Of a stretch of DNA of 15,310 nt, positions 1,842 to 15,218 are shown in pieces. The first letter of the stretch is position 1. Every line of letters begins with the position of its first letter. The notes beneath the pieces were generated by a model, which saw only the letters and a list, made by a program, of their open reading frames with translations, did not search any database and was not told where the DNA came from. Made by a program: the position numbers and the translations under genes. Source of the DNA: an uncultured bacterium (GTDB lineage: Bacteria; Abyssobacteria; SURF-5); the NCBI GenBank assembly GCA_964510165.1, contig CAZEBC010000093.1:1-15310 (forward strand), given 5' to 3'.

Positions 1842-3656
1842 ATGGAATGTTCTCCGACATCTTCCTGCGGCCCGGAGCGGTGGCGCCTCGCGTTTCTGGT
1901 TATAACCTTCCTCGCTTTCGTCACTGCATCGGTTTCCTACAGCGTCGTCATACCGGTCTTCGAATCTCAGGACGAAGAGCACCATTTCTATTTCATCAAG
2001 TTTATTTCAAACGAGATGCGGCTGCCGGACTATCGCCGTCTTGAGGACTTGGCCTCTGCGGGAAACCAGGCGATTCAGACTCCGCTCTACTATTTCTTCC
2101 AGGGACTGTTGCTGAACATCTCCGGCAAGAGCCACATCGACTTCGAATTCGAGCCGAATCCTTTCAGAAGCGACGGCATCGCGGCCATATACTATCATAA
2201 CCAGCCCGGAGAAGGGTTCCCCTATGCCGGCAAGTTTCGAGCCTTGCATCTATTGAGGCTTACCAACGTCGCTGCGGGCGTTCTCGCGCTTCTCGTCATT
2301 TACAGGTCACTGCAACTTGTTCCCTTTCTCACGGATGGCTTCCGTCTGGCCACTCTCGCGTTCGTGGGGCTTATTCCCCAGTTCACGTATCTATGCGGGA
2401 CATTGAATAACGACGTGTTCTCGATCTTGTTCGCGAGCCTTTCCTTGTTCTTTCTCATGAAGTTGCTGCTCGACCCGGGCGCCCCCGTAAAGCATGTGGC
2501 CTTCATGGCGGTTGCGCTGGGGGCGGCAATCATGAGCAAACAGATGACGCTCTCCTTCCTGCCCGTGTGTTATTTCGCCGCGCTTTACAGAGGGCCGAAC
2601 CGCAAGCGAATCCTGCATGGCCTCGTGCTGACCGGCGTTCTCGTGGCGCTCGTTGGGTGGTACTACGCCCGGAACTGGCTGCTCTTCGACGACCCGTTCA
2701 GCACGAAGACGCTGGAGGCGGTCGTCCCGAACCTGGTTCAAAAGAAATCACTGGCACAACTCGGGGAGTATCTCTTTGACCACTTTACACCGTCATTCAT
2801 AACCAGCTTTTGGGGAAGTTTCGGCTATATGACGGTATGGCTTCACTGGAATATCTATCTTGTCTACAATCTTGTCGCGGGACTTGGACTCCTTGCATTC
2901 GTTAGTGGACTTCTGGACCGTGACTTCAGACAGCGATTCTCTCGAAATGAAAAAACGGCGTTCGCATTCCTGGCGGCATCCCCCCTTTTTCTCCTGGCCG
3001 AGATAATCTCATACAACCTTTCCTTTTCTCAGCCGCAGGGCAGATACGCTTTCAATGCTCTCACTTGTCTGGCGGTCTTCTGGGGTTTGGGAATGGATCG
3101 GGTATTTAAGGGAAGGCGAACCCCTCTGCATATCGTGTGCTTGCTGCTGATCATCGGGTTTGCGTTCCTGAACCTTTCGACGCTTTTCATAAGCGTCAGA
3201 AAGTCCTTCCCGAGGTTGCCGAACGTCCTTGATGTCGTCCAGAACCGGGTGCAGGTGAATTTCGGCCCATTGACACGCGCGTCCACGGTGGGACAGGTCT
3301 TTCATTGCTCCATAGACGGACTCGACCAGATAGGGGTCATGTTCACGACCTATAACCGTTACAACAACTCGCACATCGTCTTTCGCTTGAGGAACCTGAA
3401 CGATCCTGCGCGCGACCTGTTCACTCAGAGAATCCCCGCGAGCAGCCTCCGACACAATACCTATCACATATTCAAGTTTCCTCCGCAGGAGTCCCTGGGC
3501 AGGGACTACCTTTTCCTGCTGGAATTTCCCGACGCCACCGAGAGTCAGGCGGTGAGCTGTTTCTACACGGTGTCCGATACATTCCCGGGAGGCAACGCGA
3601 TACTTAACAACCAGACCCTTCCGGGAGACCTCACATTCATAACGGGCAGGACTTGA
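1842..3656 (+). CDS. GT-C fold membrane glycosyltransferase (DUF2142/ArnT-PMT-like) with C-terminal extracytoplasmic domain
   Basis: Many hydrophobic TM segments; acidic motif after TM1 (ESQDEEHH, cf. PDE..H); QTPLYY, NND, SK, WYYARNW, SFWGSFG and QPQGRY motifs; soluble beta-rich tail of about 140 aa. Confidence 0.75.
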   Translation: MECSPTSSCGPERWRLAFLVITFLAFVTASVSYSVVIPVFESQDEEHHFYFIKFISNEMRLPDYRRLEDLASAGNQAIQTPLYYFFQGLLLNISGKSHIDFEFEPNPFRSDGIAAIYYHNQPGEGFPYAGKFRALHLLRLTNVAAGVLALLVIYRSLQLVPFLTDGFRLATLAFVGLIPQFTYLCGTLNNDVFSILFASLSLFFLMKLLLDPGAPVKHVAFMAVALGAAIMSKQMTLSFLPVCYFAALYRGPNRKRILHGLVLTGVLVALVGWYYARNWLLFDDPFSTKTLEAVVPNLVQKKSLAQLGEYLFDHFTPSFITSFWGSFGYMTVWLHWNIYLVYNLVAGLGLLAFVSGLLDRDFRQRFSRNEKTAFAFLAASPLFLLAEIISYNLSFSQPQGRYAFNALTCLAVFWGLGMDRVFKGRRTPLHIVCLLLIIGFAFLNLSTLFISVRKSFPRLPNVLDVVQNRVQVNFGPLTRASTVGQVFHCSIDGLDQIGVMFTTYNRYNNSHIVFRLRNLNDPARDLFTQRIPASSLRHNTYHIFKFPPQESLGRDYLFLLEFPDATESQAVSCFYTVSDTFPGGNAILNNQTLPGDLTFITGRT

Positions 3657-3743
3657 TTGGGCATGGAGAAAGCGATATCATGGAGTTGGACAACATTCGG
3701 GGCGAGCGAATTCCGTCATCGCATGCGGGAAAGGTGAGGCGCA

Positions 3744-4214
3744 ATGAGCGAAGACAAATACGCGAAGTATGAAAAGTATCGGCCACTGGTGGAATCGATC
3801 GAACTTTTCGAGGGCATCGAGTTCAACAACTGCATCAAAATCATGGCGATGGCCCTTCAGTCGAAGATCATGCCGGGCGACGTCATCTTTCACAAGGGCG
3901 ACGTTGGTCACGAGATGTACGTGCTCTTGAAGGGCAGGGTGGAGATACTCGATGAGGGGCCTGGAGGCGATAAGACGCTGGCCCTGCTTGGCCCGGGCGA
4001 GACCTTCGGCGAGATGGCGCTGTTTGACCGCAAGGAACGCTCGGCCAAGGCGGTCGCTCTGGACAGCTGCGTCCTGCTCGCCCTCGACGAGGAGAAAATT
4101 CAAAGGCTGCTGACCAAGAGCGTCGCCATCCGGCTCCTGCTAAACCTCGCGAAGATGCTCTCCAGACGCCTGCGCGACACCAACGTGCTGCTGGCCCGCG
4201 CGAAACAGCACTGA
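3744..4214 (+). CDS. Stand-alone cyclic nucleotide-binding domain protein (no HTH)
   Basis: GDVIFHKGD...MYVLLKGRVEI and phosphate-binding cassette GETFGEMALFDRKERSA; ends after the C-helix (LSRRLRDTN). RBS-like AAGGTGAGG upstream. Confidence 0.92.
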   Translation: MSEDKYAKYEKYRPLVESIELFEGIEFNNCIKIMAMALQSKIMPGDVIFHKGDVGHEMYVLLKGRVEILDEGPGGDKTLALLGPGETFGEMALFDRKERSAKAVALDSCVLLALDEEKIQRLLTKSVAIRLLLNLAKMLSRRLRDTNVLLARAKQH

Positions 4215-4280
4215 TGGTGTCTTAGGAAGACATGTCCTTGCCTTTCCCGGCGCAGCCGGCGGGCTTCTGTCACATTAGAA

Positions 4281-4295
4281 TTATAATCAATATCA
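4281..4295. promoter_or_regulatory. Putative Fur/PerR-family operator (7-1-7)
   Basis: TTATAAT-C-AATATCA matches 12/14 to the Fur box TGATAAT-N-ATTATCA and 12/14 to the Per box TTATAAT-N-ATTATAA. Confidence 0.45.
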
Positions 4296-4318
4296 TTGTT
4301 TAAGGGTATTTGCTGGAA

Positions 4319-4347
4319 TTGACGCATATCCTGAATTCTGTTAGTAT
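4319..4347 (+). promoter_or_regulatory. Putative sigma70-type promoter of the GRE gene
   Basis: TTGACG (4319-4324), 17-nt spacer, TAGTAT (4342-4347) with extended TGn; RBS AAGGAG at 4384-4389. Confidence 0.65.
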
Positions 4348-4395
4348 TATAAGCGCCGTTCAGAGGCTTATCGGACTAGTACAAAGGAGTATGTA

Positions 4396-6834
4396 ATGGC
4401 TGTAGCCGCACCCCGTTGCCTGAAAACGCGGGCACGCGCCCGGCTTCACTCCCTCCGGGAGATAATGCTCAAGACCCCCTATTCTGTATGCATTCAGAAG
4501 GCTCGCTTGATAACCGAATACATGAAGAGCCGCGAGGGACAGGTTGGCCCGATGATCCTTCGCCGCGCGGGAGCGCTGGCGCATATACTCGATAACGTCG
4601 AGGTCATCATCTATCCCGAAGAATTGATAGTAGGCTCAACGGCAAGCCGCAGGATTGCCGCGATGCTGCACCCCGACCTCTCCGGCCTCCTGCTTTGGCC
4701 CGAGATACACGACCTTCGCACGCGTCCGACCAACCCGCTCCAGATAACTGATGAGGAAATCCGTGTCCTCGAAGAGGAAGTATTCCCCTTCTGGTCTGAC
4801 AAGAGCGTGGCCGCGTATGCCGGCAAGTTCTCGTGTCCCGAACAACCGATGGAGATGCTGATGCAGATTGGCTACTACATCCTCACGCAGTTCGCGGGCA
4901 TCTCTCACATAACCCCGAAGTACGAGAAGGTGGTTAGACAGGGGTTTCTCGGGATTTGTGAGGAAGCCGAGCGGCACATCAATCGGCTCGAGGAAATCGA
5001 ATCCGCCGGGGGTATGACGCCCGAACTCCTTAGCCAATTGCATTTCTATGAAGCAGTTCGTGTGACATCTCAGGCAGCCACGAGGTTCGCCGAACGCTAT
5101 CGCGCGGGGGCGCTCCAACTCGCCGAAGTCACTGCCGACGTGACACGCAGGCAGGAACTGCTTGAGATTGCCGAAGTCCTGGAGCGAGTTCCGGCCCTGC
5201 CCGCGCGGACGTTCCGCGAGGCGGTCCAGTCGGTGTGGCTTGCGCATGTCGTCGTCCATCAGGAAAACTTCCAGCATGGCATCTCGTTCGGCAGACTCGA
5301 CCAGTATTTATATCCTTATTACGCGGCCGACATGGAGGCTGGCAGGCTCGAATACGGCGATGCCGTCGAGCTGCTCGGATGCATGATGGTCAAGTGCGCC
5401 GAAATCCTGCCGCTCTTTAACTCCGTCGGCACGAAATTCTTCAGCGGGCTTTCCTCCGCGCAGGGGATTACTCTCGGCGGCACGAACGAGAGCGGCGAGG
5501 ACGCGACAAACGATCTCAGTTATGCGTTTCTGGACGCATTCGATATGGTGCGTCTGCGCCAGCCCAATCTACACGCGCGCATTCATCCGAAAACGCCCGA
5601 TGAATTCCTCATGAAGATAGCCGATACAGTGAAGAAGGGCGGCGGCATGCCCGCGCTGTTCGGCGACAAGGGCGTCATTCCCGGTTTGTCCCTGCAAGGA
5701 GACACGGCCTCGGACGCATGGGACTACTCGATCGTCGGCTGCGTGGAGCCAAACGTGCAGGGAAAGACGTTTTCCGCGTGCGGAGCCGCCTTCCTGAACC
5801 TCGGCATTGCGCTCGAGATGGCGCTCACCGGCGGCCAAAGCCGCTTCAACGACCTGCGGATCGGCCCCGACACGGGTGACGCGTCACGGTTCACGTCCAT
5901 TGAAGATGTCATCGAAGCGCTGGGCGAACAAATAGCCTTCCTCGTGAGAAACGCCGCCGCTGGCAACACCGCGATCGAGCTTGCCCACATGGATATATAT
6001 CCGACTCCGATGCTGTCCGCGCTGGTGGAGGGCTGCATGGAAAGCGGAAAAGATGTGACTGTCGGCGGCGCCCTCTATAACTTCACCGGCATGCAGGGCG
6101 TCGGCCTGGCCGATGTGGCCGATTCGCTCGCGGCCATTGATGAGCTTGTGTTCAAGCGCAAATCGGTCACCATGGCAGAGCTTCTCAAGGCGCTCGACGA
6201 TGATTACGTCGGCCATGAGCGGCTCCGACAGCAAATACGGAATCACGCGCCGAAGTTCGGAAACGAGAACGAGGCCGCCGACGCTTTCGCCCGCCGGGTC
6301 GCCGACATTTATTCCAAAGAGGTACTCAAGTATCGCAACCCGCGCGGCGGAAACTACGTGCCGGGCTTTTGGTGCATGACCACCCACAACGGCTTCGGCT
6401 CATACCTTGGCGCGTTGCCCAACGGCCGAAAGGCAGGCGCAGGACTGGCGGAGGGCATAACCCCCTCGGCCGGCATGGACAGAAGCGGCCCGACCGCCGC
6501 ATTGAAATCCATCATTTCAGTCGGAATGCAGCGCATCGGAAACGGCTGCACCGTGAACCAGAAATTCTCGCCGTCCGCGCTTGCGGGCGAGAAGGGCAGC
6601 CGCGACCTCGCCTCGCTCATTCGCGCGTATTTCGACCTCGGCGGCATGCATGTGCAGTTCAACGTGGTTGACCGGGAGACCCTCATCGACGCCAGAAAGC
6701 ATCCTGAAAGATACCCCGGCCTGCTGGTGAGAGTATCGGGTTATTCGGCTTATTTCGCCGACCTCACGCCCGAAATGCAGGATGAGATAATCGCGCGCAC
6801 CGAACAGGCGTTCGGCGGAAGTTGCTGCAGCTAA
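4396..6834 (+). CDS. Glycyl radical enzyme (PFL superfamily, single-Cys GCVEP eliminase-like class; substrate unknown)
   Basis: 812 aa; Cys loop YSIVGCVEP (Cys449); glycyl radical loop [12 protein letters not shown] (Gly782); [25 protein letters not shown] and HVQFNVV motifs. Lacks the CC pair of true PflB. Confidence 0.95.
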
Positions 6835-9374
6835 GCATGTTGCCCTGGATGGTTGCGCATGAACACCGCTGCAACCGATGCCCCGACAGTCGCCAACAAA
6901 GCCATCCCGCTTACGATAGCCCCGATTAGAAGCGAGCGCGGCCGGTACACAAAGCGAACCGTGTGGCTTCCTTCCGTCACTGGGACGGCCCTGAACACAT
7001 GGTTGGCCCTGTATATTTTTTCTTCCACGCCATCCACATAGGCTTTCCAGCCCGGGTAGTAGGTATCGCACAGAACGAGTAGTCCATCGGACGGGGCTAA
7101 AACCTCGATCAGCAATTCGCCATTGAGTTCGTTCTTGATCTCGGCCCCCGCCGTCCGGAGGCGCATACCTGAAGAGAGGCCCTCCGGCTGCTCCTCCAGC
7201 AGCGCCACTCTTCGCAGGTCCACCTCACCACGTGCGAGAGAATTCAACACCGCCTCCTTCGAACCCAGAACGAGATAATCGGAGACGAAGAAGGCGCGCT
7301 CGAAGGCCTCCGTGTTCTCGTGAATTCTGATTTCGTCCTCATATGCCAGCCTCAAGGCCGGCCCCACCAAATTGACTTTGGTGTCCGTCAAGATGTTTTT
7401 CACGCCGGAGAGGTCAATCAACTGGCTTTCCAGCGCCTTGGGATCACTGAAGGCGACGGCCCATCTCTCACGCACCACCGAATCCTCATCCAAGAGTCTC
7501 AGAAAGTCGCTCATGCGGTCGATTACCAGAGGAACATAGCCCTGCGCATCCCTGAGACCGAACGGAAGGCCGGTGTTAAAGGGAAGTATTCGCGAGTTCC
7601 CGAACCGCGCCATGCGGGCATTCCCGAGGTTGTTCTGAAGGAACCGTATGCTGCCAGCCGTGAAATAGGGTTCCCCTTTCTGAATGGGATGGAATCTGAA
7701 ATGAAAGAAGAGCAGTTCAGCGGCACACACGACCGCTGCCAGGACAAAGAACATGTTCGAGCTTATTCTTCTCCTTCCCAAGAGCAAGAGCGCGAATCCG
7801 AAGCAAGCCAGCGTGGCCGCGAAAACCAGCACCGTCTGGACCGTATGGGACCAGAAGAACGCCAACGCCGAAAGAGCAACCTGGTACCCGGCGAGCCGGC
7901 CGAACAGTCCGTTGCCCTGCATGGGCGGCTGTTTAAGGAAATCCGCGTCAACGAATCTCAAGTAACCCATCACACAAAGCAAGAGCACACAGATTCCTGC
8001 CGTCCAGAAACAGGCTTTCTGAATTCGAGCGTGCCCTCTTGAATCCTCGGGAATCGGGTTCCGGATGAGTTGCTCCAGCCCCAGGCTGGCCAGCACAATT
8101 ACTGAAAACATATGGACGAACAAAGCCCGGCCCGGCCACGAGGTCTGGAATCCGGGAATCGCATGGTAAAACAAGGTCAGAGCCGTTCGTGAGAAGATGG
8201 GCAATAGCGCCAGCGCGGCGAGACACACGAAAAACCTCACGAGCTTCTTTCGGTCGGCCTTCAGGCCGATGAGCGCCAGGACGAGTACTATCACCCCAGT
8301 GTACCCGTTCAGTTCCGTAAGGTTCAGCCCCCAATCGGGACTCTCGCGCAGGGCCGCGTTCAAGTGCTGTGCCATTCCCAGGAACCAGAAATCCCCCTCG
8401 ACAGGACTTCCAAAAAACTCGGGCATCAGAAACTGCACCAGCGTCTCGGGCGGGTTGACCAGAGGAAAGAACTCGTTCTGCAGGTCCGCGACGCGGCGAT
8501 ATGAATTCGACAGCAATTCGTAAAAGGGTAGAATCTCGACCGCACACAGCGCCAAGGCGAGTATTCCCGCCCCGCCGAATTCCGCGAAGAAACCCAGGGC
8601 CCTCCGTCTTCCGAGCGCCCTGGCTTCCGTTCCCGCCCGCCAGACTGCGTACAATCCGGCTGCATAGAGAGCATACAACGTAATCTGAAACATCCCCGCC
8701 AGCATGCTCATGCTCATGGCACATGCGAGCAAGAGGACGGCCCTGATTCCTCCTCCCTTCACGAGTTTTTCGACGCCCAGGAACATCAGGGGAAGCCATA
8801 CGACGGCGTCCACAAACGGATGGTACTCGATCCAGACAATGAAGAAGCCGTTGAACATGAAGCACATCGCGCCAAACAGGCACGCGCGACGGCTCAGTCC
8901 AAGCTCCTTCAAATACAGGAACATGAAGAGTCCGGCAAGGAAGGTTCGCGCCATGCCGGAGACCGTGAGCGCAGTCACAAGGTCAGATAATTGATATACC
9001 CAAAAGAACGGATAGAAGAAGCCGGACCCCGTCGCCCCGAGCGGATATCCGCACATGATGTTCGGGGTCCACATCGGGAATACACCCTGGCTGACCGAAT
9101 CACGCGCAAAGGAGTAATATGGGATTGTCAGCGCCAGCGTATCGGAAAGGAGCGGGTTGACAGGCTGCGAAAGTTGCTGTTCGGTGGCCAGGTGACGCCA
9201 GGGCAGATATTGGTAGAGATTCGTCGAGACAAGCGCCCCGCCGCAGAATAGCTGTCTCCAATAGAACAGGCAGGCAAGCAAGAGGATGGCGATACAAGGA
9301 AGAAGATAATCTCTGCTGCGTGTATGCAAACCGGCGGTTTTCCTTGGGAATGACCATCGGACAAGCGATTTCAC
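6831..9374 (-). CDS. YfhO family membrane protein (GT-C type glycosyltransferase)
   Basis: [12 protein letters not shown] and FFYPF N-terminal motifs, multiple TM helices, and the C-terminal [17 protein letters not shown]...[24 protein letters not shown] signature plus a final TM. GTG 9374 (GGAAGA upstream) preferred over TTG 9428, which overlaps the upstream gene. Confidence 0.88.
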
Positions 9375-9403
9375 GACTGTTCTTCCATCAGAGACCGCAT
9401 GAA

Positions 9404-10042
9404 CTAGTTTGGCGGGGTTCCGAACCAATTCTTGAGTATCTCACGGAGGCGATTGAAGGCAGAATCCGTGCATCGACTTAAACTTACTCTTTTTGCTAGA
9501 TCATAATAGATCGCAGAAGACCTGGGCTTGTTCGTCCTGCAGAGGATCATCTCCATTGCTCTCTTTGGATCGGAGGGTTTGGGATCGTTTTTATTCCAAA
9601 GGTCTTGGGAGACAAGAAAGCTTTTCAAATCTGTTGGTTGGTTTAACCATCCGAGACATTGGGACACCTGTGAAGAGTCGCTCCATACCCACATTTCCAG
9701 TTCGGGCTCGATAACAACCACTTGCGCGCTTTGCCAACCCGTGCGCGTGAGTTGGTCACGGACATGTTGGGCGATTCCCTCGCACGATCCCTCTTGGCCG
9801 CATCCTGCATAATCGAACAGAACCAGTGCATGGTCATATTTGTTGAGATGCAGGCGCAATAGATTGTGTGACTGATGGAAGCATCCTGGGTCATTCTTGC
9901 CCACGAAGGGAACGATGTCGAAAGTCACTTGCCGTATCCCGAGGGCTTCTGGCCGCTCCATCATTCCCCTAACGGCAAATTCCATGTTTCTGTCAGCCAC
10001 TAGAATTATGAGGTCCTTCTTAGGAATTTGGGGCTCGTTCAT
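9404..10042 (-). CDS. MAD4-like / DUF4276-like TOPRIM-related protein, partner of the upstream ATPase
   Basis: Motifs DLIILVADRNME, DPGC, ALVLFD, IEPELEMWVW and KPSDPK; ATGA overlap with the ATPase stop at 10039-10042. Family assignment is from recall. Confidence 0.7.
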   Translation of the reverse strand: MNEPQIPKKDLIILVADRNMEFAVRGMMERPEALGIRQVTFDIVPFVGKNDPGCFHQSHNLLRLHLNKYDHALVLFDYAGCGQEGSCEGIAQHVRDQLTRTGWQSAQVVVIEPELEMWVWSDSSQVSQCLGWLNQPTDLKSFLVSQDLWNKNDPKPSDPKRAMEMILCRTNKPRSSAIYYDLAKRVSLSRCTDSAFNRLREILKNWFGTPPN

Positions 10043-11289
10043 CCCAATATCCCTGAGGCGAAGACATCTCCCAGACTAATTTCTCTCTGCCATTCTTTGA
10101 GATAGGGATGTTCGGCTCCGTTGACGATATCAACTAAGCCGTCCTCGGTCTTCGCGAAACAAAGAAGGTATTCCGGCTCTGTGATGGACAGGAGAATCGG
10201 AGAGTGTGTGGCAAGTAACACCTGCCCGCCATACACGGAAGAGAGGGACTGATAGATCGTTTGAATGGCTTTGGGATGGATACCGTTTTCCGGTTCTTCA
10301 ATCAGGTATATGCCTGGCATCCCAGGAAGATATGCTAAGAGCGTCAATGCCAGCAGCCTGAGAGTCCCATCCGATGTCAACCAAGAGGGTACTCTCAAGC
10401 CATTAGCGTGTTCCATCATAATGTATTTATGTTTATCCTCCGGCCGTTCAATCACTTTAATGTCTCTAACGTCAGGTAAAGCAGTCTGGATATGAGCGAT
10501 CCACTCGCGGAATCGGGGAAAATTCCTTGCCTTCAGGCCTTCAATTACTAATGGCAGGTTTGAGCCATTCGGACTGAACTTGTGAGGGGTTCCCGGCGGA
10601 CACGCTGAGCGCATGGCTTCACTATTGAGAACAAGTATTTGTATGCTATCCTGTAATATCTTCTTAAACCAGGTGGAGACAGGAAATTTTTCCTCGTCCT
10701 CAGGCAGGTTCGCCAGCGCGGACTTCTGAGGTCCCAGCTTGAATGAATGGTCCCACTTTCCGGTTTCGGAGTAGAAATTGTCGTTGCCCTTATATATCTT
10801 GTTCACGAGAGTCTTTCTACCCGATTTGCGACCCGAGTGAACGAGCGACTTCCTTGCGGGAAGCCCGGTTTCCGGAAAGAGCGTACGCTGCCTAAAGACT
10901 TTCTCAGTTGGCCTCAAAAGCGACAGCGTTTCCCAGAGAATTCCCAACTCCTCAACGTAATCCTCCTGCACTCCGATGGCCATTTCATACCGGCAAATGC
11001 CGTACGATTTGTTTTCGAGAAGGGCAACTAGGTTCTCCGGTATCTTGGCCTCTATTGCAAGTTCAAACCTGGTGCCAAACCCCCTCCAAAAAAGGTCTTC
11101 GAAGTTTGGGGCCCGCTTCAAAACGGCGCGAACAGGCCCTTCACGGACGACATCGGCCATGAATCCAATTACATCCAGGAACGTGGACTTACCGCTGGCG
11201 TTTGGGCCGACCAGAACATGAAAAGCCCCCAAATCCTGCTCAATGTCTCTGAGACACTTGTAATTAAGCGCTTCTATCTTAGTGATCAT
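10039..11289 (-). CDS. ABC-type (AAA_21/AbiEii-like) ATPase, MAD3-like, putative defence component
   Basis: N-terminal ITKIEALNYKCL, Walker A GPNASGKST, signature SDGT, Walker B/D-loop YLIEEPENGIHP, H-loop ATHSP; no TM segments. Confidence 0.88.
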   Translation of the reverse strand: MITKIEALNYKCLRDIEQDLGAFHVLVGPNASGKSTFLDVIGFMADVVREGPVRAVLKRAPNFEDLFWRGFGTRFELAIEAKIPENLVALLENKSYGICRYEMAIGVQEDYVEELGILWETLSLLRPTEKVFRQRTLFPETGLPARKSLVHSGRKSGRKTLVNKIYKGNDNFYSETGKWDHSFKLGPQKSALANLPEDEEKFPVSTWFKKILQDSIQILVLNSEAMRSACPPGTPHKFSPNGSNLPLVIEGLKARNFPRFREWIAHIQTALPDVRDIKVIERPEDKHKYIMMEHANGLRVPSWLTSDGTLRLLALTLLAYLPGMPGIYLIEEPENGIHPKAIQTIYQSLSSVYGGQVLLATHSPILLSITEPEYLLCFAKTEDGLVDIVNGAEHPYLKEWQREISLGDVFASGILG

Positions 11290-11390: not shown

Positions 11391-11945
11391 TTACAACTTC
11401 CTCACCAAGAGGTTGCCTTCGCGAACGGCCTTCTTGTTGAGTTCCAGCATGTGTTCGCGGCGGCCTCCCTTGAAATGCTTGCTGAGAGAGCGCTCGAGCA
11501 TGCCTACCGGCACCGATTCGGTCTTGCCGACATACGCCCCGAGAAGCACCATGTTGGCTACCTGCAGGTCTCCGAGTTCCACCGCCTTTTGCGAAGCGGG
11601 GACATGAAAGACCTCGATGTCCGAACGTTCGCCCTTCGCCGAGATGATGGAATCATCGCAGAACAATATGCCCCCGGGCTTCAGTCGCATCTCAAACGTC
11701 GTGAAGGAGGCCGGGTCCATCACGATGGCGTGACGCGGACTGAATATCAGCGGGCTCGGGATGGCCTTGTCGGAGAAGATGACGGTGCATTCGCTCTCGC
11801 CGCCGCGCATCGCCGGCGCGTAATTGGGGAAATACGATACATGCTTGAACAGGTCCATGCCGGCGTCGGCAAGGATGCGTCCGAGCGTGAGAACACCCTT
11901 CCCGCCAAGCCCCGACATCGTGACCTCGAAATATCTGTCCGCCAT
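11391..11945 (-). CDS. 2-oxoacid:ferredoxin oxidoreductase gamma subunit
   Basis: SGLGGKGV, PNYAPAMRGGESEC and ANMVLLGA motifs; RBS AAGGAG. Confidence 0.93.
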   Translation of the reverse strand: MADRYFEVTMSGLGGKGVLTLGRILADAGMDLFKHVSYFPNYAPAMRGGESECTVIFSDKAIPSPLIFSPRHAIVMDPASFTTFEMRLKPGGILFCDDSIISAKGERSDIEVFHVPASQKAVELGDLQVANMVLLGAYVGKTESVPVGMLERSLSKHFKGGRREHMLELNKKAVREGNLLVRKL

Positions 11946-11960
11946 TTGGCTCTCCTTGCG

Positions 11961-12731
11961 TCAATCGAAGATCGAGTCTATGTTCTTGAATTCACCCAGC
12001 GGAAATTCCTCGATCATGTGCTCCTGGATGTACGCCACCGATTCCACCGGGCTCATTCCCCACACCGATGGGCACGCCGAGAGAAACTCCACGAAGCTGT
12101 AGCCCGCACCGTCCATCTGCTTCCTGAATGCGGTCGTCAGCACTTTCTTGGCCTTCCTGAAATTGGCAGGCGTATGAACGCTCACCCGCGCCGAATAAGC
12201 GACGGATTTCATGTATGCCGCCAACTCGGCCCCATGAAAGGGAAACCCGTGCTCAGCCGTCCGACCGTCCTGTGTGGTCGTCGTCTTCATTCCCATCAGC
12301 GTGGTGGGAGCAAGCTGGCCGCCGGTCTGTCCGTAACCGGCGTTGTTCAAGAAGATAGTGGTCAGGTTTTCATTCCTTAAGACAGCACTCAGGAAACAAC
12401 CGAGGCCGATCGCCCCAAGGTCGCCGTCACCCTGGAGCGTGAACACAAGAGCGTCGGGATGGATTCGCTTGATCGCGGTGCCCATGGCCGGCGCTCGCCC
12501 GTGTGGGCATGAAACCCAATCTATGTTTACCGATATCGGCGCGCCCCCGAAGCTGCACCCCACTCCGGCCAGCCCGATCGCCCGACCCGCCAGGTTCGTT
12601 TCCTCGAGAACCTCGCAGATGACGCGCGTGATGATGCCGTAATGGCATCCGGGACAATAGGTGCTCGGAAACACGGTTCGAAGCTCCGGCTTCCCGCACA
12701 CCAACACTTTCTTCTTGTCTGTAGCGCTCAT
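11961..12731 (-). CDS. 2-oxoacid:ferredoxin oxidoreductase beta subunit (TPP-binding)
   Basis: YCPGCHYG, GVGC, HGRAPA, TPP motif QGDGD...NN.GYGQTGGQ, EFLSACP; RBS AGGAG. Confidence 0.95.
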   Translation of the reverse strand: MSATDKKKVLVCGKPELRTVFPSTYCPGCHYGIITRVICEVLEETNLAGRAIGLAGVGCSFGGAPISVNIDWVSCPHGRAPAMGTAIKRIHPDALVFTLQGDGDLGAIGLGCFLSAVLRNENLTTIFLNNAGYGQTGGQLAPTTLMGMKTTTTQDGRTAEHGFPFHGAELAAYMKSVAYSARVSVHTPANFRKAKKVLTTAFRKQMDGAGYSFVEFLSACPSVWGMSPVESVAYIQEHMIEEFPLGEFKNIDSIFD

Positions 12732-12789
12732 GGCTGAAATCCGTTTCTCCTGGTAGCCTGAATCATTGAAGAGTTGGCCCAGCCATCCA

Positions 12790-13872
12790 TTAGCCGGCCA
12801 GTTTCTTTATTTCCTGATACACTCGTTCCGGAAAGATAAGGCCTTGCGGCTGGTCCGAGTTCCGCGCCCACAGGCCAAGATAATGCACGGGCACTTTTCC
12901 CTGAACCACAAGGTCCACGTCCTCCTGCATCTGACCGTTGCTGTCCTCGACGCACAGCACTTTCCCGGCCTTCAGAGCCGCCTCTCGAAGCGCCTCTCCC
13001 GGGTAGGGCCACAGCGTAATCGGGCGGAACAGGCCTACCTTCAGCCCGTCGGCCCGCGCCATCTCCATCGCTTTGGCGCACGTTCGCGCCGTGGACCCAT
13101 AGGCGACCAGCAGCAGCTTCGCATCATTGACGCCGACTGCCTCGTGCCTCTTCTCGGCTTCTTCCACTCTCTTGTATTTCTTCAAGTACGCTTCATGCAT
13201 CGATACCACGCCGCCGTGCGTGAAGAAAGCGACCACGTGCATGTAGCGCATCCCGCCTTTCTTCTCAGACCCTTTGAGCGCCCAGAACTTTTCGGGCAAT
13301 TCTTCATTGAACTCGAGTGTCTTCAGTTCCACGTCCTCGGCCATTTGACCAAGAACGTAATCCGACAGCACGATGCACAGAATCCGATACTTGTCGGCAA
13401 GATGGAAGGCAAGCTGCATCAACTCGTATGCTTCCTGCGGCGACGCGGGCGCCAGCACGATCGCCCGATACCCGCCGTGTCCTCCGCCCTTCACCACGCA
13501 CCGATAGTCGGTCTGGCCCGCCTGGCCGCCGGTACCGATGCCCGGCCCCATGCGCGAGACGTTCACCACGACGCACGGCGCCTCCATCTCGGCTATGTAC
13601 GAGATGCCCTCCTGCATGAGCGCGTAACCGGGACTGGATGTGGAGGTCATCACGCGCGCGCCCGCCAGTCCGCCGGCGTACACCATGTAAATCGAGGAGA
13701 CTTCGCTCTCCGATTGCACGAAGACGCCCCCGACCTTCGGAAGCTCGCGCGACATGAATTCGGGAATATCGTTTTGGGGCGTGATCGGATAGCCGAAGAA
13801 GTGTCTGCATCCCGCGGCAATCGCTCCCCGGGCAACCGCCTCATTGCCCGTGATAAACATTCGCTCTGTCAT
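12790..13872 (-). CDS. vorB: 2-oxoacid:ferredoxin oxidoreductase alpha subunit (VorB-like)
   Basis: GNEAVA, FFGYPITPQ, VQSESE, TSTSSPG..LMQE, KGGGHGGY, LFRPITLWP, VED.NGQM; RBS AGGAG. Substrate specificity is not established. Confidence 0.92.
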   Translation of the reverse strand: MTERMFITGNEAVARGAIAAGCRHFFGYPITPQNDIPEFMSRELPKVGGVFVQSESEVSSIYMVYAGGLAGARVMTSTSSPGYALMQEGISYIAEMEAPCVVVNVSRMGPGIGTGGQAGQTDYRCVVKGGGHGGYRAIVLAPASPQEAYELMQLAFHLADKYRILCIVLSDYVLGQMAEDVELKTLEFNEELPEKFWALKGSEKKGGMRYMHVVAFFTHGGVVSMHEAYLKKYKRVEEAEKRHEAVGVNDAKLLLVAYGSTARTCAKAMEMARADGLKVGLFRPITLWPYPGEALREAALKAGKVLCVEDSNGQMQEDVDLVVQGKVPVHYLGLWARNSDQPQGLIFPERVYQEIKKLAG

Positions 13873-14147: not shown

Positions 14148-15116
14148 TCAGAAGTTCACGCAAAAATCGGGCTTCTGGCCTTGCGCCAGCCTTCGTATGT
14201 TCCGCGCAACCTGCGCAAAACTGCGCGCGCGCGACTCGACGGTCGAAGTCGCCACGTGCGGAGTCAACACGACATTGTCAAGGGCGAGCAGTTTGTCCTC
14301 CGCGCGCAGCGGTTCCTCCCAGAACACGTCAAGTCCGGCTCCCGCGATTTTTCGCTCCTTCAGCGCCCGAACCAGTCCCTCCCGGTCCACCAATCCGGCG
14401 CGCGCGATGTTTATGAAATACGCGGTTTCCTTCATGCGGCATAGCTGCTCATAGCCGATCATGCGGCGAGTCTCTTCATTCAGCGGACAGTGGAGCGACA
14501 CAAAATCGCTCTCGGTCAGAACCTTATCGATCTGGTCGATGCCGGCGAGGAATTCGACGTCCGGATTGTGTATCTGCTGATGGTATTTGTCAACGGCGAC
14601 GATTCTCATGTCGAAGGATTTGGCCCGTTTGGCCGCTTCCTTGCCGCTATGACCCAGGCCAATAAGCCCGAGCGTCTTGCCGCAGAGTTCCGTCCCTATT
14701 GGCAAGAAGAAGACTCCCTTCCGCAGATTGCTCTGCGCCTCGTTCAATCTGCGCGAGAGCAGCAGCATAAGCGCAATCGTCAACTCACCCATCGAGGTCG
14801 CGCTCCCATACGGCACATTCGCAACATATATGTTCCGTCTGGTCGCGGCCTCGATATCCACGGTGTCGAGTCCTACCCCCGCCTGGTTGATCAGCTTGAG
14901 CCTGGTTGCGGCCTGGATGACCCGCGCGTCTATATCGGAGAGCGCGGGCACTATGACATCGACATCAACCACCTGGTCGATGAGCGATGCCGAATCCGAG
15001 AGAAAAGCCAACTCCACCGGCATCCCCTTCAATTCTTCGTAAAAGGCAAGCAGGGGGCTTGTGCTGGAGGCGCTGGCGGCAGCGGCGCTAGGAACGACGG
15101 CAATCAATACCTTCAT
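14148..15116 (-). CDS. D-isomer-specific 2-hydroxyacid dehydrogenase (NAD-dependent)
   Basis: GVGLDTVD, Rossmann GLGHSG with Asp at VDK, SLHCPL, catalytic Arg (NIAR), Glu (DVFWEEP) and His (TPHVA). ATG 15116 has GGAGGT upstream; the ORF-track start at 15218 falls within the promoter/leader. Confidence 0.93.
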   Translation of the reverse strand: MKVLIAVVPSAAAASASSTSPLLAFYEELKGMPVELAFLSDSASLIDQVVDVDVIVPALSDIDARVIQAATRLKLINQAGVGLDTVDIEAATRRNIYVANVPYGSATSMGELTIALMLLLSRRLNEAQSNLRKGVFFLPIGTELCGKTLGLIGLGHSGKEAAKRAKSFDMRIVAVDKYHQQIHNPDVEFLAGIDQIDKVLTESDFVSLHCPLNEETRRMIGYEQLCRMKETAYFINIARAGLVDREGLVRALKERKIAGAGLDVFWEEPLRAEDKLLALDNVVLTPHVATSTVESRARSFAQVARNIRRLAQGQKPDFCVNF

Positions 15117-15218
15117 TGGACCTCCGACCCCAAGGGTCGAACCGGCTGTGAGCGAAGGATTTCGCAGGAAACTTGATGGATGGGACCGCCAAATCCAACT
15201 ACCATAACTGCGATTCAC

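Follow-up and report, generated by a model that had tools for sequence, protein, structure and literature searches.

The locus and its glycyl radical enzyme gene

The stretch of DNA analysed here, called the window below, is an entire contig of 15,310 bp (CAZEBC010000093.1, C93) from the 4.17-Mb, 325-contig genome of an uncultured bacterium of the Abyssobacteria (SURF-5). Its gene of interest, an uninterrupted open reading frame (ORF) at 4396..6834 of the forward strand, codes for an intact protein of 812 amino acids (ORF call and translation) that belongs to the oxygen-sensitive glycyl radical enzymes (GREs). Judged from its sequence, the catalytic machinery of this enzyme is conventional, and its pocket is distinct and conserved. 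The other genes of the window code for a cyclic nucleotide-binding protein, PMT_2-like and YfhO-like glycosyltransferases, a MAD3/MAD4-like defence pair, a VorB-type oxidoreductase and a 2-hydroxyacid dehydrogenase (Table 1), and no GRE activase is present in these 15.3 kb.

Table 1. Features of the GRE gene and of its surroundings in the window (GD, glycerol dehydratase)
Feature	Position	Strand	Basis or remark
GRE gene, 812 amino acids plus stop	4396..6834	+	ORF, translation, Pfam, NCBIfam
Promoter-like site: TTGACG, 17-nt spacer, TAGTAT, TG before the second hexamer	4319..4347	+	consensus match only
Shine-Dalgarno-like AAGGAG directly upstream of ATG 4396	4384..4390	+	read from sequence
His171 (GISH), common β1 site; aligns with GD H164 and CutC D216	4906..4908	+	
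Gln293-His294-Gly295 (FQHGIS), family signature on β2	5272..5280	+	invariant in alignment A1
Leu352-Ser-Ser-Ala355 (FSGLSSAQG); Ala355 in the GD Tyr339 column	5449..5460	+	alignment
Cys loop Cys449-Val-Glu451, CXE motif	5740..5748	+	translation, alignment, codon check
Ala461-Cys462-Gly463 (Cys+12 to +14); Gly463 for GD Asp447	5776..5784	+	alignment
Gly657-Phe-Trp659-Cys660-Met-Thr-Thr-His664, β8 strand	6364..6387	+	alignment
Arg779-Val-Ser-Gly782, glycyl radical motif (RVSGY)	6730..6741	+	translation, Pfam, codon check
C-terminal Cys810-Cys811, tail FGGSCCS	6823..6828	+	translation
Stand-alone cyclic nucleotide-binding protein, 156 amino acids, without output domain	3744-4214	+	Pfam
YfhO-like gene, 865 amino acids, convergent	6831-9428	-	ORF
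MAD3-like AAA ATPase and small MAD4-like partner	9404-11289	-	NCBIfam, 500 vs 420 and 214 vs 160
VorB-type 2-oxoacid:ferredoxin oxidoreductase, three subunits	11391-13872	-	alpha subunit NF005507, 424 vs 399 bits
D-2-hydroxyacid dehydrogenase	14148-15218	-	NCBIfam

The product matches the Pfam families PFL-like (640.9 bits, residues 16-668) and Gly_radical (114.7 bits, residues 685-787), and the RVxG[FWY] motif of the GRE superfamily is present as R779-V-S-G782-Y. It passes TIGR01774, the broad NCBIfam model of the PFL2/glycerol-dehydratase subfamily, with 772 bits against a cut-off of 678, and stays far under the cut-offs of all function-specific NCBIfam equivalog models: those for HpsG (NF048011, 620 versus 1000 bits), CutC (TIGR04394, 582 versus 1050), HypD (NF043068, 565 versus 1100), PflD-type enzymes (PRK09983, 555 versus 1109), HpfG (530 versus 1000), indoleacetate decarboxylase (391 versus 1100) and pyruvate formate-lyase (PFL; TIGR01255, 138 versus 994).

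The promoter-like site ends 48 nt before the ATG (the consensus scan returned 4 sites, with 1.6 expected), and the start codon with the MAV... N-terminus is kept in 4 orthologs. At its other end the stop codon of the gene overlaps the end of the convergent YfhO-like gene by 4 nt (6831-6834), and no terminator-like hairpin was found in 3600-7000, where 3.3 would be expected by chance. All 10 pairs among 5 orthologs have ratios of nonsynonymous to synonymous divergence (dN/dS) of 0.06-0.10, with dS saturated at 1.4-2.4; the gene is under purifying selection, and all its motifs are intact. The stretch, or part of it, occurs in 5 public DNA sequencing runs from 3 studies, and there is no RNA run among the public runs listed as containing it.

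Residues of the active site

Residue pairs were counted by hand from a HMMER alignment to the glycerol dehydratase (GD) of C. butyricum, DhaB1 (1r8w). A preliminary description of the gene, made from the sequence alone, had named C449, E451, G782, H171, H294, C462, G463, W659, C660 and H664, and a codon check places every one of them correctly. The alignment pairs C449 with GD C433 and E451 with GD E435, and the two substrate His that had been thought to be retained are indeed found, H171 for GD H164 and H294 for GD H281. It likewise bears out that the Asp at Cys+14 is replaced and preceded by an extra Cys (G463 for GD D447, C462 for H446) and that the β8 strand is altered (W659 for Y640, C660 for P641, H664 for N645), and it adds A461 for W445 and G295 for S282. 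One pairing had to be corrected: the Leu assigned to GD Y339 was wrong by three residues, as Y339 aligns with Ala355 and Leu352 aligns with GD Y336. In the HypD paper, HypD S334 stands in place of GD F333 and F340 follows six residues later; this placement fits, so that Ala355 would occupy the pocket column of GD Y339.

The replacement of the Asp of the CutC GGGD motif by His was confirmed by an alignment to CutC (9f3w), in which the column of D216 falls on His171. This agrees with the common β1 site given in a published comparison, where IslA-Q193, CutC-D216 and HypD-H160 are equivalent (PMC8473560). Cys462 falls in the column of CutC Thr502, and G657 aligns with an Arg of the HpsG paralog of the same genome. 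As had also been stated, the CC pair of PflB is absent, GCVEP holding a single Cys. The columns of GD S282, Y339, D447 and Y640 are occupied by G295, A355, G463 and W659; we take these four GD residues to be substrate-binding; the review sections used below confirm only H164 and E435.

Conservation and phylogeny of the pocket signature

Conservation was counted in an alignment of the best 120 of 1098 relatives (E<=1e-50; 8000 candidates scored), which form three groups. The enzyme's own clade has 10 proteins (one, P0026, is a fragment) that are 77-81% identical and carry TFGISH, FQHGIS, FSGLSSAQG, GCVEP, FSACGA and GFW[CTS]MTTH. The main family comprises 81 proteins of ~870 amino acids, 43-51% identical, with FQHG[IV]S, FSGLSSASG, GCVEW, FPAAGA and GFW[ST]MTTH. 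The remaining 29 proteins, of ~805 amino acids and 46-51% identical, come from Dehalococcoidia and resemble the A. fulgidus PFL2 (AfPFL2), with the signature YEQALC, FSGFPANPA, GCVE[ILV], FGSTDAA and GFLSMTTH.

H171, H294, G295, A355, G463, W659 and H664 are found in 10/10 clade members (9/9 where P0026 is without the region) and in 81/81 members of the main family. In these alignments, the pocket signature, which the enzyme carries in full (H171, Q293-H294-G295, S353-S354-A355, A461-x-G463 and W659..H664), extends beyond this gene and is the hallmark of a large uncharacterised family, across which A461 and G463 are invariant, as are S353, S354 and A355 in alignment A1. Not every residue to which attention had been drawn at the start belongs to the signature. 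Cys462 is Cys in 10/10 proteins of the own clade and Ala in 81/81 of the main family, and Cys660 occurs solely in this sequence, Thr or Ser taking its place in the 9 other clade members and in 81/81 main-family proteins. His664 is also present in the 805-amino-acid group and in several paralogs, and hence is no special feature. Positions 460 and 356 also differ between the clade and the main family.

How widespread is this family? A species-level scan, covering one genome per prokaryote species with the peptide patterns FQHG[IV]SFGR and VR[IV]SGYSAY, matched 598 stretches, 586 of which were confirmed as relatives, and 46 of the 74 loci retained carry FQHG[IVM]S. The hosts of these signature loci include Myxococcota (among them the cultured Enhygromyxa salina and Plesiocystis pacifica), Desulfobacteraceae, Chloroflexota/Dehalococcoidia, Binatota, Bdellovibrionota and Schekmanbacteria, and a Candidatus Abyssobacteria metagenome-assembled genome contributed a 79% identical ortholog (L043). 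The signature family spans at least six phyla. A midpoint-rooted FastTree tree of 69 rows, which included the paralogs of the own genome (HpsG among them) and two neighbouring uncharacterised families, and in which the paralogs have long branches, recovered the signature proteins as monophyletic (SH-like support 99). Within them the 5 rows of the own clade (support 100) form the sister group of the remaining 41 (support 100), and neither the 805-amino-acid group nor another, 'STDAA' group nor any of the genome's five paralogs falls among the signature proteins.

Several homologs bear database names such as 'formate C-acetyltransferase'. We found no study of the FQHG[IV]S GRE family in the literature accessible to us, including the available sections of a 2026 review (PMC13450708), in which entire GRE clades are described as still unvalidated. 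The words 'glycyl' and 'formate lyase' do not occur in the Abyssubacteria genome paper.

Predicted structure and distance from solved enzymes

An AlphaFold2 model built from a 35-sequence alignment (pLDDT 87.8, pTM 0.91) superposes on all solved GREs. Its fold matches GD, AfPFL2 and the GRE 1,2-propanediol dehydratases (PD) with TM scores of 0.91-0.96 at 36-39% identity. For DhaB1, with which the gene had initially been compared by eye, Foldseek gave TM 0.92-0.95 at 39% identity, and in the sequence alignment C449 matches GD C433, the catalytic Cys of the Cys loop inside the ten-stranded barrel. Identity to the solved enzymes is 39% for 1r8w and for AfPFL2 (2f3o), 36-38% for the 1,2-propanediol dehydratases, 35-36% for CutC, 34% for PflD and YbiW, 33-35% for IseG, HpsG and IslA, 32% for HypD (6vxc), 30% for HplG and 28% for BSS and MASS (4pkf, 9o8u). 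At 28-39% to all solved GREs, none of the characterised enzymes comes close, and the proposal of an eliminase-like GRE from an uncharacterised clade is upheld, TIGR01774 being passed and no equivalog model.

Other GREs and candidate activases of the genome

The genome is unusually rich in GREs. There are six, on C93 (the window), C211, C40 (two, in a tandem GRE-GRE-activase cluster), C146 and C28, and the five paralogs are 33-39% identical to the window GRE. Three activases exceed the TIGR02494 cut-off, on C146, C9 and C40. The pair on C146 passes the HpsG (1200 versus 1000) and HpsH (438 versus 430) cut-offs of the DHPS sulfolyase system, and the other GREs and activases pass none. The activase on C9 is solitary, with housekeeping genes around it (LpxK, DprA, Dus, TPR proteins); the cognate activases of the main family match it best in 9/12 cases and the C40 activase in 3/12 (42-48% identity). 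Orthologs of the C9 activase (71-77%) are present in 5 genomes of the same family, 3 of which (G001, G003, G004) are without this GRE. The C9 activase is the best candidate partner of the window GRE, the pairing being a best guess, and it may serve several orphan GREs in common.

Two further observations concern the GRE and its genome. The short Cys-bearing tail of the GRE comes after the final helix of its glycyl radical domain, in a part of the model with confidence below 50. Tail Cys are found in 8/10 clade, 73/81 main-family and 19/29 805-amino-acid-group proteins, and also in the paralogs on C211 and C40 (C40a), not in the HpsG paralog. On contig C8, dsrA exceeds its cut-off twice with identical scores, 14.3 kb apart, which may reflect a genuine duplication or a repeat introduced in assembly.

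Gene neighbourhoods of the clade and of the main family

Orthologs 76-80% identical to the window GRE are present in 4/9 genomes of the same family, with different flanking genes, and a metagenome scan added only 3 further clade loci (the nearly identical L111 and L112, and a partial L113), with RecO, PilT-like and YfhO neighbours. An adjacent activase, a short-chain dehydrogenase/reductase (SDR) module or a transporter was found in 0/8 clade loci (the window; G005, G006, G007 and G009; L111, L112 and L113). The only recurrent neighbour is the convergent cluster of the VorB-type oxidoreductase and the 2-hydroxyacid dehydrogenase, in 3/5 loci and with variable cargo in between; it was considered as a substrate clue and rejected, as we read it as backbone synteny and not as an operon. 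The spot between GRE and oxidoreductase, which in the window holds the MAD3/MAD4-like pair and the YfhO-like gene, looks like a place of variable cargo, the pair being present in G006 and not in G005. PADLOC gives HEC-01A/mad3 and mad4 as best matches of this pair, and no other MADS genes are found in the window. The cyclic nucleotide-binding gene was likewise dropped as a partner, since none of the 4 ortholog loci has it next to the GRE; the PADLOC match of its product, to Pycsar-type effectors, is confined to their nucleotide-binding part. A 117-aa ORF (12728-13081) that overlaps, in a different frame, the gene of the oxidoreductase alpha subunit is probably spurious; its counterpart in G006 is 48% identical.

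The main family offers more context. When activases beside the family loci were counted by tblastn, one lay directly downstream of the GRE in 24/46 signature loci; of the 22 loci without one, 3 belong to the own clade and 11 to a single Chloroflexota lineage, and 2 of the remaining 8 are cut at the contig end. Extended SDRs occur near the GRE in 18/46 loci, with OleD, HpnA and SdmB as best NCBIfam models, all far under their cut-offs, and classical SDRs in 14/46. A few loci hold TetR or XylR-type sigma-54 regulators, a TauE-family permease or a MIP channel. With its activases and SDRs, this context would suit a rather lipophilic substrate that bears a hydroxyl or carbonyl group. In the own genome the homologs of the OleD-like/SDR partners show generic identities of 25-41%, and none is near any GRE or activase.

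A probable 1,2-eliminase and its alternatives

We favour, as rather probable, the reading that the gene codes for a functional GRE of the 1,2-eliminase/isomerase class, from a small Abyssubacteria-like clade sister to a large uncharacterised family, with a substrate larger and less polar than glycerol. According to sections 5.6 and 5.7 of the review (PMC13450708), the CXE motif is common to all GRE eliminases and isomerases; in the GD reaction the C1 hydroxyl loses its proton to Glu435, and His164 supplies one to the hydroxyl that leaves from C2 (section 5.6). The window GRE has C449-V-E451 and, as the β1 acid, H171. By homology, an unlinked radical-SAM activase would generate the radical on Gly782, which would oxidise Cys449 to a thiyl radical; this would strip the substrate's carbinol carbon of a hydrogen atom, Glu451 would deprotonate the carbinol hydroxyl to give a ketyl, His171 would protonate the leaving group on the neighbouring carbon (most likely a hydroxyl, the reaction then being a dehydration), and the product radical would regain hydrogen from Cys449, leaving an aldehyde or ketone. 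Because this catalytic set matches that of the dehydratases, we read the enzyme as a 1,2-eliminase and not as a case of new radical chemistry; that earlier suggestion finds no support, the Cys/Glu pair and the β1 His being intact as in GD. Its companion, a possibly roomier pocket, is a fair one, and the pocket is probably also less polar, with G295, A355, G463 and Trp659 predicted in place of polar or large GD residues. These replacements, the S-A-C-G in place of G-W-H-D, and the lipid-type reductases beside the sister family together suggest a larger, less polar hydroxylated substrate.

Several points weigh against this reading. The Pro452 of the clade in place of Trp and the differences at 460, 462 and 356 indicate that the substrate may not be common to clade and main family. 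The lining of the pocket is deduced from alignments rather than from coordinates, and in the model the confidence is low, with pLDDT <50 at residues 661-663, inside the β8 signature. The 8 clade loci, with their varied neighbours, give no substrate evidence, and since orthologs of the C9 activase also occur in genomes without the GRE, its profile is not diagnostic.

Which reaction might this be? A tentative proposal, which we regard as considerably less probable than the class assignment itself, is that the FQHG[IV]S family, this clade included, catalyses an undescribed GRE reaction. For instance, a lipophilic vicinal diol or 2-alkoxy alcohol derived from lipids might undergo radical dehydration or ether cleavage; the OleD-like/SDR reductases would then take the carbonyl, and the Cys462 of the clade, in the substrate-contact column of CutC Thr502, could serve as an additional donor or acceptor of hydrogen atoms and alter what the reaction yields.

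The alternative that survives best, although it is improbable, is a ring-opening or ether-cleaving enzyme in which the leaving group is an alkoxide, that is, a YbiW/PflD-like isomerase or an ether lyase with 2-alkoxy alcohols as substrates. In its favour, the CXE motif and the first steps of the reaction are the same in GRE isomerases (PMC13450708, section 5.7), an alkoxide would be well served by a roomy pocket with His171 as general acid, and 2 family loci (L046, L049) have a MIP channel next to the GRE. Nevertheless, identity to PflD and YbiW is 34%, the PflD-type model is missed by about half its cut-off, and phosphotransferase system, kinase and aldolase genes are not near the GRE in the window or the ortholog loci.

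A sulfonate C-S lyase of the IslA/IseG/HpsG kind, releasing sulfite for dissimilatory sulfite reduction, is unlikely. It draws on one Chloroflexota/Dehalococcoidia lineage, in which the GRE is divergent from dsrAB-dsrN-dsrC-dsrM(-like) genes in 11/46 loci (L047, L055, L056, L058, L059, L060, L068, L081, L083, L087, L088), with a SPASM-type radical SAM protein, a YeiH-type putative sulfate exporter and a CcsA-like protein downstream and no GRE activase nearby, and on the TauE-family permease in 2 Desulfobacteraceae loci; the own genome also has dsrA over the cut-off and the HpsG/HpsH pair. A functional link of the dsr-adjacent GREs with sulfite respiration is possible, but these GREs form one clade of the tree (10 rows), so the adjacency counts as a single event in a single lineage, and sulfur genes lie beside 0/8 clade loci. 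Moreover, in all three solved C-S lyases an Arg/Gln/Arg triad anchors the sulfonate, as PMC13450708 and PMC8473560 report, and this triad is absent from the window GRE, where the -4 Arg site is taken by Ala167, the Gln site by His171 and the place of the Arg of the HpsG paralog by Gly657. Its score is also under the HpsG cut-off.

It is very unlikely that the enzyme is a hydroalkylase of the alkyl-/aryl-succinate synthase type. AfPFL2 is its best PDB sequence match (601 bits), the function of AfPFL2 is debated between GD and MASS according to the review (PMC13450708), and the CANT-HYD paper mentions an alkane proposal by Khelifi et al. 2014. Against this, identity to the BSS and MASS alpha subunits is 28% versus 39% to GD, genes for small beta, gamma or delta subunits are not in the window or the 4 ortholog loci, the CXE motif and β1 His are those of eliminases, and the pocket differs from that of AfPFL2 at Cys+14 (Asp), at the Gln-Ala pair and at a Tyr. 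Still less credit can be given to a silent or decaying relic that lost its activase and with it any means of activation. Neither the contig nor the flanks of the 8 clade loci hold an activase, but the low dN/dS, the intact catalytic motifs, the gene's own promoter-like and ribosome-binding sites and an orphan activase conserved across the family's genomes speak against it. Finally, PFL activity, implied by the database names of several homologs, can practically be dismissed in view of the single Cys of GCVEP, the TIGR01255 score and the mere 129 bits to E. coli PFL.

To our knowledge, GREs carry out difficult anaerobic chemistry, and a function is known for only a few dozen of their thousands of sequences. 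The gene described here marks a distinct pocket type in a family spread over at least six phyla, with Enhygromyxa and Plesiocystis among its cultured members. Assigning a substrate would add a new step of anaerobic degradation, possibly relevant to carbon or sulfur cycling in the subsurface and in sediments, and would correct the widespread 'formate C-acetyltransferase' label. The gain from this gene alone is modest, its catalytic machinery being conventional and its surroundings without a substrate clue.

Comparison with known systems

With GD DhaB1 (1r8w/1r9d) and GRE PD (5i2a, 9rco) the window GRE shares the fold (TM 0.92-0.95, rmsd 1.7-2.0 Å), the catalytic Cys, the CXE Glu, the β1 and β2 His and the Gly radical motif. 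It differs from them in sequence (36-39% identity), in having S-A-C-G where GD and PD have G-W-H-D after the Cys loop, and, by the Pfam scan of the window, in standing without adjacent activase, 1,3-propanediol or bacterial microcompartment genes. The C-S lyases IslA, IseG and HpsG are of the same class and share the CXE motif and the fold at 33-35% identity, whereas their sulfonate triad is replaced by A167, H171 and G657. AfPFL2, the best sequence match in the PDB, has GISH and the β8 MTT in common with the window GRE, but carries Asp at Cys+14, Gln-Ala at 294-295 and Tyr in the 659 column, and its pocket signature is shared instead by the separate 805-amino-acid Dehalococcoidia group. The main FQHG[IV]S family, the sister group in the tree, has the same pocket signature residues and differs in the Trp that follows the catalytic Glu (Pro452 in the own clade), the Ala at 462 and an N-terminal insertion.

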